DNA of 64,000 bases from Lophium mytilinum (Eukaryota): NCBI GenBank assembly GCA_010093605.1, contig MU004195.1, positions 124,001 to 188,000 on the forward strand. Direction: 5' to 3'. The position numbers and the translations under genes are program-made. A model generated the notes under the pieces. That model was not told where the DNA came from, ran no database searches, and worked only from the letters and a program-made list of their open reading frames with translations. This document shows, piece after piece, positions 4,482 through 20,980 of this stretch (position 1 is its first letter; the number at the start of each line of letters is the position of its first letter).

Positions 4482-4567
4482 TCCGGTGTGGTTTAGTTGG
4501 TTATAACACAGTCCTCCGGGCCGCGGCCCGAGAGGTCGAGACCCAAGTTCGATCCTTGGCGCCGGAC
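4482..4567 (+). tRNA. tRNA, most likely Arg(CCG), with a 13-nt intron (4520-4532) and a weak anticodon stem
   Basis: Acceptor TCCGGTG/CGCCGGA. A box TGGTTTAGTTGG. T arm CCAAG-TTCGATC-CTTGG. Anticodon loop CT-CCG-G. T6 terminator at 4584-4589. The anticodon stem CAGTC/GGTCG has one mismatch and two GU pairs. Confidence 0.75.
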
Positions 4568-16629: not shown

Positions 16630-17880
16630 GCTGGACGTGAAGTGAATCTGTTCGAGACTGAGCTTGATGATGGAGAGGGGGCGGCTGGAGATCGGTAGTC
16701 TGAGGTGGAGGGAGATGAGGCGATGGAAGAGGGGGTGATGAGCTTAGGCCGCAGCGGACTGACGACCTCACTTGATCTACACCGCTATAAGGACTACAGA
16801 GAGGATCGTGGGAATGAAAAGGTCCTAGATTGTTATGGTATATTGAAATATCTTCAATCACCCATCAGCAATATAGAAGACATGTGTCCGTTTGCGACAG
16901 TTTGGGGTCCTTCGATATGCTTTGGAAAATTCGAAAGATATATATCTCTACCATGCTAGACGATGCTTGAACCTGTTTTGCCACCCCAGACAGCGCCACC
17001 CTCATCGTTACCTTTCTGTAAGTTCTGGATATGTGTAGAAGATGTTGGATGCAAGTATGAAATACTAGTGGCTACGGGACTAGGGGGCCCATCAACTAGG
17101 ACAACGACCTGTGTTGAGGTGTTTACCGCCGTTTGAAGTACGTCAGAATATTTTGAAAGATCTAGTTGGAACGTGAACTCTTAGTTCTTTAGAGTCTGTA
17201 AACTCGCCAGGCCACCTCTGACTGCGTCAAGCGGCACTATTCACCACCCAAAAGAGTACTAATGTTCTCGTTTTACATATTCAAAACTGTACGAGATACT
17301 CCTTGAGGTGGTGATAGAACTTAGACATGCTTTTGTCATCCTGCCGTGCGAACGAGTCGTTCGAGGACTCAAACCTGGCCTTTCTAGTTGCGGCTGCACC
17401 GTTCGGCGAGGCTCAATAGGTTATCTAAGATATGAAGGATGAAAGAAAGGGCACAAACAGCTCGTCCAATCATATGAGACAATCTTTCAATGATGTTTTG
17501 TGCTATCAGTTAGCCGTTGTCGTTGTGTAGGTCTGAGAGGTCTAGGACGGGAGTCTTGCGCGCGCGCCAATACAGAGGCGGCACCAACTGTTTTCGATTC
17601 CATCAATACTTAATCAAAGCGAGGATCGGACATGATAATAGAGTCATAATACCATCAATCCGCGAGCTTAAACATCCCCTTTTGCACTGTCGTGGTGGGG
17701 CAACGTTGAAGTCCCGCTCGCGAAACATTCCCCGCATCCCCCACCCCCTCGAGAATTCAACATAATATCAAGAGTAACACGCAATACCCCAATAGTCTCC
17801 TGTATGCTTAATATACGTCTGAAGTCTAGGCTCTCTATCACAAAGTTACTAAAATAAGTGGGGTTGTGGTTGAAAAAGCC

Positions 17881-17938
17881 AAAAAAAAGAGCTCCCAGTC
17901 CTTCACTACCCCGGAATCGAACTCAGGACTACGAAAAA
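17881..17938 (-). terminator. Pol III-type T runs downstream of tRNA-Thr: T5 (17934-17938) and T8 (17881-17888)
   Basis: A5 and A8 runs on the plus strand. The T5 starts ~30 nt after the mature tRNA 3' end. Confidence 0.7.
17913..17924 (-). promoter_or_regulatory. Stand-alone B box (TFIIIC site) GAGTTCGATTCC downstream of the tRNA-Thr gene
   Basis: Matches the B-box consensus GTTCRANYC in the same orientation as the tRNA. Its flanks (CTGAG/CCGGG) do not form a T stem, so it is not a second tRNA. Confidence 0.7.
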
Positions 17939-17968
17939 GCGACGCTAGCATGCTAGCGCATCTATCAC

Positions 17969-18107
17969 TGCCCATTCTCGGAATCGCTAGAACCTGTAAG
18001 CGACTATGTCTGGAGCATAGCAGCGTTGTGGAAGTATACTTACAACCGAGGATCTTCTCATGTCGCATAGATACGAGTGAGACGCTGTACCACTAAGCCA
18101 AACGGGC
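17969..18107 (-). tRNA. tRNA-Thr(CGT) with two introns: 10-nt canonical intron (18062-18071) and 57-nt GT-AG intron in the T-loop (17987-18043)
   Basis: Spliced sequence GCCCGTT TG GCTTAGTGGTACAGC G TCTCA CT CGT AA TGAGA AGATC CTCGG TTCGATT CCGAG AATGGGC A. Acceptor 7/7 (one GU), anticodon stem 5/5, T stem 5/5, canonical T-loop. Confidence 0.9.
17987..18043 (-). other. Spliceosomal-type (U2) intron inserted between tRNA positions T55 and C56
   Basis: GTAAGT 5' splice site. GCTTAC branch-point-like motif (18001-17996) whose A lies 10 nt before the intron end. TTCTAG 3' site. Length 57 nt, matching the ~50-60 nt mRNA introns in this window. Confidence 0.8.
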
Positions 18108-19171
18108 CAGACGGTGATTTTGGGGCGGTGAGGAAATATGCCTTATATCTCGAGTGTTGGACAACCAGGTGTCATCAGTTGTAGAGAGGAGGGGTAGAAG
18201 AAACGTCATCTAGCTTCCCAGGTGACTGTGGGCTGTGGAACGCAAGCTGGTGGGTGGGTCGCCGCGGGCCGGTATGCGGCGGGGCGGCGATAGCGGTCAG
18301 CTCGCAAGCCACATAGCTGATTGGCCAGGTTGGTCACGAAGGTTCACAGGCATGATATAGAGAGAAACTTTTCTTGTATTAGACATACTGAGCTGGGAAT
18401 CATGAAAAGCGGTTGTGCTTTCCTGAACCGTATTGAGGGAACTACATTTGACCAGCATCTCTACGAGATTGTACCCTTCTGCTTCCTATGATTATTTCCA
18501 CTGTAGTCCGTCTGAGACTGTGTCTTACTTGCCCGATTGATAGCTTTTTTAGATATGAAACTGTTTGAGTCGTGACCAGCCCATTCAGCATGCGCTATCA
18601 TGCAGCATTCACGGCTTAACGTCTTAGAAAGCCAAAGCAAGGCACTTACGATGCGGATTCCAGAGTCTTCATTCTTCTATAGGCTCAGCACAAGAAAGGT
18701 TTACGCGAGAGTTGAGATATCAATGATATTCTTGATAAAGCATGCAGATCCTCATATGCCCTAGATGATTGGACAGGTTGACGGTCTATTTACATCTTCT
18801 CCATATGATAAAGCCGCTTCTGAACATGCTTTTGAATGCTTTCGGTCCTCACTGGGACGACGCTACAAGGGTAGGTAGAACTAGTCTTGCATGAGTAATG
18901 CGGAGCATATCGAACCGACATCTTACGCGATCTTCCGAGTCTCATCCCTTTCCTCTCCATCACTGCTCCGAGACCACGCTTCGTACACCCGGTTTTGCTC
19001 CTACATCTTCGTTGTTGGTTTCAAGCTGTGAATGATACCGTTTGCTGCTCGTCGGGATTTGCTGTTTCTAGAAGAAGCGATATCCTGGCGCAGCTCGCTC
19101 AGCTCCGAGAGTAGGATTTCTTTTTCTCTTTTCCTGCGACAAGACTGCGACATGGTGTGAAGGTTTTTGAG

Positions 19172-20980
19172 TTACTGCTGACACGTCCGACTCTTGTGTG
19201 ATGCACACCAGTGGCTGCATCCCGATCGCGATTGGAAGCAAGGGCATTTTGCGGGTTTGCAGTATGGAGCGCATTCGCATGATATCACAGACTTGAGGTC
19301 CGCCAGGATTTCTTGGAACTCTGCCTTGAACTCTTTTTCGTCCCGAGTGCCGGCGAATCGTTTAGCGTCCGAGTCAACCCATCTCTCAAGGGAATCCATC
19401 ACTCCTGCGAATTGGCGAGCTACCAACTCGTTGGACAGACCAGGGTGATTCGCAACGGTGTGAATGTTCCGAAGGATTGAAAGAATCTGCTGGTCATCCC
19501 AGAACATGCCCCCATCCATCAACGCGTCCTCGATCGTGATGGGCGCGTGGACGACCATGGTTCCCGGAGGCATGATCAAGGTGTCGCCGGGCTCTAGAAC
19601 AATCATCTCTAGTCGTCCCTTCTTTGGAAGATACAAACTCTCAAACTTCTTGTAATCTTCCATCTCTTGCTCCGTCAAATTCGTCATCACCGGCCAGGCT
19701 TTCAGTCCCGTCCACAGACGAGCCCAAGTGCCGTTCAGCCAGTCGATGTGGCAGCCCGATACAGCCCCACGTTGCGCATACAGGTTGAATGAGCGGCAAG
19801 AGTAAAAGTCGATGTATGGCTCGCCTGCAGCGTTCTTGATCGGGTCCGTGTGCGGCTTTCCGGCCACCGAGTCCGGGCCCGTTTTGCTCAACGCGCGATC
19901 AGAGAGCGAGGGAATCAATTGGAACCGCCTTCGTTCTAGGATGTCCGGAATCGGCTTCTCCACCACATCGCGTAGATTTAGTAGGTTGTATGGCAAAGAA
20001 TCGTTGCTAAGATGCTTCTTAGCCTTTTCCAGTCGCTGCAGGACCTCTGCTGTTGGAATCGCACGCGCGCTGGGCTGGTCCATGTGAATCGACGGATCTT
20101 GCACATCGATATTGGTGTTGCCGAATCGGTCTTCCATACGCTCCGAGAATTTCTGGCGAATAGATGACTCTAATTGGCTGCGCTGGGGGGCTTCTCGAAC
20201 GACGGTCGGCAGCGTGAGAGGTTTGCCGCTATCGACGTACGCCTCGAGATGATCCCAGGTCGTGTACATGACGTCGGCATCATCTAGAGATTGGACCGTA
20301 TTTGGGCCTAATTTGAGGTGTTCCGGAGCCCAGACGGCTGGCCAAGCGGAATTCTGCAACACATAGATGCCGATTTGCAGCATTTCGTGCCACTTTGATT
20401 GCTTCAAGTTCGGTGGGATAGAGTCTTTGCAAGCTAGCATCTCGCCCAACAGAGTTTCGAGAGCCGCCTCATGTTTGGCTTGGATACTGGCGATCCGCTG
20501 GCTGGCAGCGCGCTCTGTTGAATCAGCTGGATCGATGGCTGCGGGGGAAGAGACGGCGTGGATTGGAGCATTAGGCGGTGCTACCGTTACCGTATCCGGA
20601 ATTTCTGGCGCCTGGGATGATCGGGCAGAGACGTGGCTATGCAGCATGGTTCGGGAAGCCGTCTTTGGAATCTTGCTTGCTCGCCCGGTGCTCCCAAAGT
20701 CGGATGCTTCGATCTGGCGTTTGCGTTTTGGCATGGTTGGCGAAGTTGAGCGAGTCAGGGTCGCTTCGCAGCTAAGTCCCACGGTTCCACCTGCCTCGTC
20801 GCACAAACCATTTCGCTGCTGAATCCATGATTTTCGCGCCGCCAACTGGGTAGCTCTTTGTCGAGGGGTGAAGAACTGCGACTCCAACCGGTCTCCTTTA
20901 ATGGTAATGACGAAGGGCATTTTCTTTGTCTTGCCAGAGCAGACTGCGTCAACCTCCAAAGTCTCACAAAGTCGCCGCAA
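19172..20980 (-). CDS. JmjC-like Fe(II)/2-oxoglutarate cupin protein with a C-terminal Cys-rich (CXC-like) domain; true start uncertain (possibly ATG 20734, MPKRKRQ)
   Basis: 602-aa ORF. GAVSGCHIDW...GLKAW...LEPGDTLIMPPG..VVHAPIT gives the HxD...H triad. C-terminus CECAPYCKPAKCPCFQSRSGCSHWC. Confidence 0.75.
   Translation of the reverse strand: MRRLCETLEVDAVCSGKTKKMPFVITIKGDRLESQFFTPRQRATQLAARKSWIQQRNGLCDEAGGTVGLSCEATLTRSTSPTMPKRKRQIEASDFGSTGRASKIPKTASRTMLHSHVSARSSQAPEIPDTVTVAPPNAPIHAVSSPAAIDPADSTERAASQRIASIQAKHEAALETLLGEMLACKDSIPPNLKQSKWHEMLQIGIYVLQNSAWPAVWAPEHLKLGPNTVQSLDDADVMYTTWDHLEAYVDSGKPLTLPTVVREAPQRSQLESSIRQKFSERMEDRFGNTNIDVQDPSIHMDQPSARAIPTAEVLQRLEKAKKHLSNDSLPYNLLNLRDVVEKPIPDILERRRFQLIPSLSDRALSKTGPDSVAGKPHTDPIKNAAGEPYIDFYSCRSFNLYAQRGAVSGCHIDWLNGTWARLWTGLKAWPVMTNLTEQEMEDYKKFESLYLPKKGRLEMIVLEPGDTLIMPPGTMVVHAPITIEDALMDGGMFWDDQQILSILRNIHTVANHPGLSNELVARQFAGVMDSLERWVDSDAKRFAGTRDEKEFKAEFQEILADLKSVISCECAPYCKPAKCPCFQSRSGCSHWCASHKSRTCQQ

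Follow-up and report, generated by a model that had tools for sequence, protein, structure and literature searches.

The window, by which is meant the whole 64-kb stretch of DNA analysed, carries on its minus strand a tRNA-Thr(CGU) gene that is interrupted at two places. Its parts, numbered from the first letter of the window, are the following.

17969..18107, minus strand: tRNA-Thr(CGU) gene, as called by ARAGORN after in silico removal of the T-loop insert
18107-18072, minus strand: exon 1
18071-18062, minus strand: canonical 37/38 intron, 10 nt, in the anticodon loop
18061-18044, minus strand: exon 2, ending in ...CTCGGTT at 18044
17987..18043, minus strand: T-loop insert, 57 nt, of spliceosomal type, between T55 and C56
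17986-17969, minus strand: exon 3, starting with CGATTCC at 17986; the discriminator A, which is the mature 3' end, is at 17969

The split tRNA-Thr(CGU) gene and its promoter elements

Given the 139 nt unspliced, or 501 nt of the locus, ARAGORN called no tRNA. Once the 57 nt had been taken out, it returned a tRNA-Thr(cgt) of 72 nt with a clean cloverleaf and the 10-nt canonical intron. The specificity of this result was checked by deleting singly each GT..AG candidate of 30-160 nt in the entire window (n = 1409) and rerunning ARAGORN; a single one of the 1409 removals across the 64 kb gave a junction-spanning tRNA, and it was the one at the tRNA-Thr(CGU) locus. Rfam gave no match at gathering thresholds in the whole window and, at E <= 10 between 17600 and 18400, four chance-level matches at most. 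Since the exons give an undamaged cloverleaf, the gene does not have the look of decay.

The insert begins with GTAAGT and has a branch-like CTTAC site 12 nt before its 3' TAG. Three introns of a nearby Laa1-like gene, taken for comparison, are 48-55 nt long, with CTAAC-type branch sites 10-14 nt before YAG. The insert matches these introns in size and in signals, and therefore resembles a local spliceosomal intron. The organism is a Dothideomycete: its Laa1-like protein has 97% identity with the one from Lophium mytilinum, followed by relatives at 82%. Neither the insert nor the trailer has a further copy in the window, where the best other matches are 11-14 nt long with E >= 0.26; a repeat or introner origin of the insert was rejected on this ground. 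At 17980-17995 (minus strand), the 3' end of the insert and exon 3 read GGTTC-TAGC-GATTCC, i.e. an intact B box plus four additional bases, so that GGTT is repeated at both ends of the insert. This repeat may be a trace of the insert's origin.

Textbook tRNA genes have their promoter inside the mature RNA, and the T loop and the TFIIIC site constrain each other. The initial annotation had held that the insert breaks the internal B box at the DNA level, and this is indeed the case: GGTT (18047-18044) and CGATTCC (17986-17980) are held apart by the 57 nt, and the internal B box is therefore nonexistent as DNA. Two other elements of a Pol III promoter can be recognized.

18142..18147, minus strand: TATAAG, TATA-like, -40 to -35 from the mature 5' end, with a putative promoter role
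18090..18100, minus strand: intact A box TGGCTTAGTGG, at tRNA positions 8-18

TGGCTTAGTGG is assigned as the A box on the basis of the known consensus. TATAAG would be at about -30 from a Pol III start presumed to lie a few nucleotides 5' of the tRNA. Neither the gene nor its introns contain a T run of four or more.

The B-box consensus downstream of the gene

The region beyond the mature 3' end has the following features, in the order in which they would be met in the orientation of the gene.

17943..17958, either strand: perfect 16-nt palindrome CGCTAGCATGCTAGCG, four bases ahead of the first T5, matching itself on the opposite strand
17934..17938, minus strand: first T run, T5, +31 to +35
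17913..17924, minus strand: extragenic B-box consensus GAGTTCGATTCC, in the orientation of the gene, +45 to +56 from the mature 3' end
17881..17888, minus strand: T8 run, +81 to +88
17877-17873, minus strand: a further T5, after the T8

The placement of GAGTTCGATTCC in the initial annotation turned out to be exact: it lies 45 nt beyond the mature 3' end and about 10 nt (nine bases between) after the T5, is co-oriented with tRNA-Thr(CGU), and sits between the T5 and the T8 runs. It is also, as had been claimed, outside any cloverleaf, given that ARAGORN finds no tRNA and Rfam no tRNA match at E <= 10 over the motif. By reading, its would-be T-stem halves show no mutual pairing. The 11-nt core, GTTCGATTCCG, is the same as the T loop of the spliced tRNA. 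About 170 bp separate the A box from this downstream box. The T5 at 17934-17938 is presumably a Pol III terminator, a likely one although possibly leaky, and the T8 run is predicted to be a strong back-up terminator.

The palindrome CGCTAGCATGCTAGCG forms a 7-bp hairpin in the predicted fold, and together with the T5 it resembles a hairpin-plus-T-run terminator. The fold of the trailer is otherwise unremarkable (MFE -23.8 kcal/mol, z = -0.07 versus shuffled sequences), and for this reason an AGTCCT/AGGACT stem around the box was dropped as a meaningful structure. Two further candidates were rejected. An alternative 3' exon, using the pairing of a downstream CCGGG with CTCGG, fails because the bases that follow form no acceptor stem; a second, decayed tRNA or a dimeric gene fails because there is no cloverleaf, no A box precedes the motif and the T5 intervenes.

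How unusual the box is depends on how it is defined. The exact 10-mer GTTCGATTCC occurs a single time in the 64-kb window, and allowing one mismatch gives 4 matches versus 4.5 expected. The core GTTCRANNCC is found five times on both strands of the 64 kb; the chance of meeting at least one, on a given strand, is then about 0.006 within 150 nt and 0.016 within 400 nt. With the 11-mer consensus and one mismatch tolerated, there are 23 sites in the window and the chance probability is 0.06 within 350 nt. The shorter GTTCRANNC is not enriched in the window (20 versus 17.8 expected). From the tRNA's 5' end to +200, introns included, no other site comes within one mismatch of the 11-mer consensus. 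A chance origin of the downstream motif is unlikely, but the odds against it are not overwhelming.

Around the identical 11-nt core, the motif's flanks resemble the T arm of the same tRNA weakly, marginally above random window sequence: identities are 7/16, 10/24, 12/32 and 16/40, with empirical P values of 0.087, 0.062, 0.086 and 0.027, respectively. It is possible, judging from these alignments, that the motif is a partial T-arm duplication; if it is an old T-arm copy, then only the box itself has been preserved. The motif might thus be a neutral relic (a decayed partial copy of the T arm of this tRNA or of another one) or a chance match, functionless in either case, and the gene would be driven by the TATA element and the A box alone or be a recently disabled pseudogene. 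A decaying copy is expected to have flanks slightly nearer to the T arm than random sequence, as observed (P 0.03-0.09), yet with a flank identity of about 45-55% it is unlikely to have retained an intact 11-mer absent selection. Likewise, the unpaired T-stem halves, the absent cloverleaf and the frequency of loose B-box-like strings (the 23 sites and the unenriched GTTCRANNC mentioned above) all fit a relic or a coincidence, whereas an 11-nt identity with the T loop as spliced, co-oriented and 45 nt away, with a P of about 0.006 for the core, and the undamaged state of the tRNA exons do not. Taking into account the other split genes described below, a functionless motif, the main rival to a promoter role, appears unlikely, without being far-fetched.

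Transcript contigs came from a single public run, X1, whose kind is guessed. Three of them fall on 16800-19300, namely at <=16881, at 17577-17908 and at >=18393, leaving 17909-18392 uncovered, the tRNA included. Since no X1 contig lies over the tRNA, X1 bears neither way on tRNA expression. On the minus strand, at 18393-19172, the transcript contig of a gene for a 614-aa protein (no Pfam domain) runs about 780 nt beyond the stop codon, and on this strand, shared with the tRNA gene, its end is about 285 nt upstream of the latter. The otherwise unannotated 17577-17908 is covered by a 334-nt contig whose depth is intermediate between those of both neighbouring genes, and which reads the T8 run as T10 (two additional T). 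This contig may represent a short Pol II RNA with its beginning or end at a site bound by TFIIIC.

Both yeast and humans have TFIIIC-only (ETC) sites, located at Pol II promoters and at domain boundaries, and chromosome-organizing clamps have likewise been described. Like ETC sites and these clamps, the window's motif is an isolated consensus B box that is intergenic and outside the mature RNA. It could therefore be asked whether it binds TFIIIC as an ETC-like or boundary site that insulates or blocks the neighbouring Pol II units and does not drive the tRNA. The motif is inside a 2.3-kb gap between two same-strand protein genes, and the X1 contig at 17577-17908 ends 5 nt from it; however, contig ends cannot establish RNA ends. 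ETC sites are, moreover, by definition unattached to a Pol III gene, whereas the window's box is 45 nt from a co-oriented Pol III-type gene that has no B box of its own, so that it is simpler to assign the box to that gene. A role confined to insulating or blocking is improbable.

The sole other tRNA-like gene in the window, at 4482-4567 (plus strand), can be read as an intronless tRNA-Gly(tcc) of 86 nt or as a tRNA-Arg(ccg) whose anticodon stem is weak and whose intron has 13 nt. Its score is below the gathering score of Rfam, and a T6 run follows about 17 nt downstream. No consensus box was found within about 130 nt downstream of it; its T-arm 8-mer, ATCCTTGG, is met again some 130 nt downstream, within a B-box-like string that departs from the consensus.

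Other tRNA genes split in the T loop

Metagenome contigs were searched with the pattern GGTT + GTAWGT + 30-60 nt + AG + CGAWTCC, which itself fixes the intron position, and at least 120 loci were obtained. With the same or a stricter pattern, prokaryote genomes gave 30 loci and viral contigs 25. At each locus the candidate intron was deleted in silico, with up to three more GT..AG removals, and ARAGORN was rerun. None of the 30 prokaryote-genome and 25 viral loci yielded a real split tRNA. At least three real genes, all of them metagenomic, are split at the same T-loop position as the window gene.

L087, 237-376, plus strand: tRNA-His(GTG), with two introns, the canonical one of 11 nt and one of 58 nt in the T loop
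L044, ~297-473 of the reverse complement, minus strand: tRNA-Cys(GCA), with a 55-nt D-arm intron (TACTAAC) and a 50-nt T-loop intron; 861 nt of its 195-kb contig were examined
L038, 192-467, plus strand: tRNA-Ser(GCT), with four introns: 48 nt (D loop), 50 nt (anticodon loop), 52 nt (variable region) and 45 nt (T loop)

The 81-nt tRNA of L038 is recognized by ARAGORN only with all four introns removed. The introns of L087, L044 and L038 start with a GTAAGT-like sequence, have a branch site of the TACTAAC or CTAAC type and finish in YAG. Two further loci, L030 and L082, were rejected as split tRNA genes, ARAGORN giving tRNA-Pyl or pseudo-introns of 42-96 nt and there being no A box or terminator; they were counted as controls.

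The presence of a B box was then scored from the T-loop intron through 150 nt downstream, with GTTCRANYC as the core. The core is present downstream of the window gene, in L087, where it is AAGTTCAACCCC and overlaps the 5' splice site, and in L044 as GTTCGAATC, from base 7 of the T-loop intron. Since the hypothesis came from the window's own case, this case cannot be used as its test. With the window left out, the core is found in 2/3 of the metagenome split genes versus 2/172 of the control non-tRNA pattern matches, among the matches listed, which gives a Fisher's exact P of 0.0012 for a small comparison set (n = 3 listed genes); with the window counted (3/4), P becomes 4.4e-5, again among the matches listed. 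That two of the three other split genes have an intact box nearby, as opposed to two of the 172 controls among the matches listed, speaks against a motif that is a relic or coincidence. L038, conversely, is split in the T loop and has no GTTCRANYC core; it displays only near-matches, one in the anticodon-loop intron and one just after the T18. The consensus box is therefore not universal in the class, and such genes may manage without it.

The position of the boxes differs between the window and the metagenome genes. None of L087, L044 and L038 has a consensus box within 150-200 nt downstream. Both metagenome boxes being intronic, they support the compensation of a split B box, not its downstream placement. 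An intronic box of the S. pombe U6 type is present in L087 and L044, and none (<=1 mismatch) is present in the 57-nt insert of the window gene, which leaves the downstream motif as the window's candidate box. In this set, a split gene tends to have an intact box in its vicinity, which supports the logic of compensation.

In all four split genes, the window gene and the three above, the A box is at position 8, and a stretch that is AT-rich or TATA-like is seen around -50 to -35. T runs of five or more are absent from the four genes and from their introns; in each, the first such run begins 13-31 nt past the 3' end, as a T5 for the window gene, a T7 for L087, a T6 for L044 and a T18 for L038, where it begins 16 nt past the end. 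This combination, present in 4/4 split genes, is a Pol III signature. It speaks against a reading in which Pol II transcribes the locus, the intron being spliced co-transcriptionally, the tRNA being cut out and B boxes being irrelevant. Transcription by Pol II would fit the full spliceosomal signals of the insert (GTAAGT, branch-like CTTAC, TAG 12 nt on), the TATA element would be equally usable, and the transcript contig of the upstream same-strand gene reaches 18393, some 285 nt from the tRNA. These signals do not, however, call for Pol II, since the S. pombe U6 gene (PMC5855946) shows that the spliceosome acts on Pol III transcripts; and intronic B boxes are kept in two of the split genes, L087 and L044. 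I consider that Pol II is a poor candidate for transcribing this locus.

The tentative picture that emerges, less probable than not, is that some fungi, here a Dothideomycete close to Lophium mytilinum, and at least three soil eukaryotes possess a class of Pol III tRNA genes with non-canonical introns of spliceosomal type, up to four per gene, in which a B box split in the T loop would be rescued by a relocated one, either intronic or behind the terminator. In that case intron gain would have uncoupled a tRNA promoter from the tRNA sequence. In the literature searched, whose reach left out most subscription journals, no description was found of spliceosomal-type introns in tRNA genes, nor of a downstream B box that compensates for a split one.

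A candidate relocated promoter element and its known counterparts

The evidence presented above is consistent with the downstream motif serving as a TFIIIC (tauB) site that replaces the split internal B box of an ordinary Pol III tRNA-Thr(CGU) gene. This compensatory-promoter interpretation is plausible and partly supported, and I put its probability at roughly 45%. TFIIIC would anchor on the downstream box (17924-17913), and its flexible linker would span the distance of about 170 bp back to the intact A box (18100-18090). TFIIIC would then position TFIIIB over TATAAG, at about -30. Pol III would transcribe the gene, termination occurring at the T5, or at the T8 upon read-through of the T5, and the gene would presumably need the downstream box for this to happen. 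The spliceosome would remove the 57-nt insert from the pre-tRNA, in the same way as from S. pombe U6, and the tRNA splicing endonuclease would remove the 10-nt intron. Should the T5 be leaky, the layout would not be SNR6-like; the B box would be inside a long 3' trailer, as part of a type 2 promoter.

The initial annotation had proposed that the gene has adopted a U6-like architecture. The layout fits this, with TATAAG upstream, an intragenic A box, an internal box split at 18044/18043, and AGTTCGATTCC at +46, after the T5 (+31 to +35) and ahead of the T8; the downstream position of the box is the part that finds no parallel in the comparison genes. The motif had also been offered as an independent argument that the locus is transcribed. 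The motif is present, and the argument is weak as long as the function of the motif is deduced from sequence.

If the compensatory-promoter interpretation is true, the combination of a split B box and a perfect box elsewhere would mean that the roles of the T loop and of the TFIIIC site are separable. Arrangements hitherto known from U6 genes only would turn out to have been put to use again in tRNA genes, and certain tRNAs would require the spliceosome for their production. Standard tRNA finders would then overlook functional fungal genes, as exemplified by tRNA-Thr(CGU), which ARAGORN and Rfam both miss. The four split genes provide concrete constructs for studying the reach of TFIIIC and the splicing of Pol III transcripts other than U6.

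Among known systems, non-canonical tRNA introns removed by way of a bulge-helix-bulge (BHB) occur in archaea, in Cyanidioschyzon and in some green algae, at positions outside 37/38 that include the T loop. Unlike these, the inserts of the window and of the metagenome genes have GTAAGT, a branch site and YAG, and are of the size of local mRNA introns; a bulge-helix-bulge is absent from the predicted fold of the window tRNA insert.

tRNA genes normally hold their B box in the mature sequence, and U6 genes do not. The U6 gene of S. pombe, which Pol III transcribes, carries its B block within an intron of mRNA type (Frendewey et al. 1990, as cited in PMC5855946). The window gene is likewise a Pol III-type gene with an intron of spliceosomal type and a B box outside the mature RNA, and differs in that its intron contains no B box. 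L087 and L044, with a B-box core 3-7 nt into the T-loop intron, are a close match to the S. pombe gene.

In the SNR6 gene of S. cerevisiae the B block, essential in vivo, comes after the coding region, with about 200 bp between it and the A block (PMC5855946), in agreement with the precedent that the initial annotation had invoked. With its TATA-like element at about -30, internal A box, T-run terminator and co-oriented consensus B box, the window has the same order of elements as SNR6. In both, the A-B spacing is far above that of normal tRNA genes, about 170 bp in the window and about 200 bp in SNR6, which indicates that the window's spacing is workable. Unlike SNR6, the window gene is a tRNA gene, not a U6 gene, its box comes about 10 nt after the first T run, as opposed to roughly 120 bp beyond the terminator in SNR6, and this box would replace an internal one that has been destroyed by an intron.

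In Dictyostelium discoideum, external B boxes are found about 41 bp downstream of 66% of the tRNA genes (PMC3159450). The window tRNA gene is similarly followed by a box of the GTTCRAnYC type, 45 nt away compared with about 41 bp; GTTCGATTC starts 47 nt beyond the 3' end. The two situations differ in that in Dictyostelium the internal box is intact and the external box is a genome-wide habit, whereas in the window the internal box is split and the organism is a fungus. The Dictyostelium boxes make a downstream box as such less novel. That a tRNA gene is followed by such a box is thus no novelty, and the window's box is a variation on the SNR6 and Dictyostelium arrangements; more striking than the downstream box is the putative class of tRNA genes with spliceosomal-type introns.
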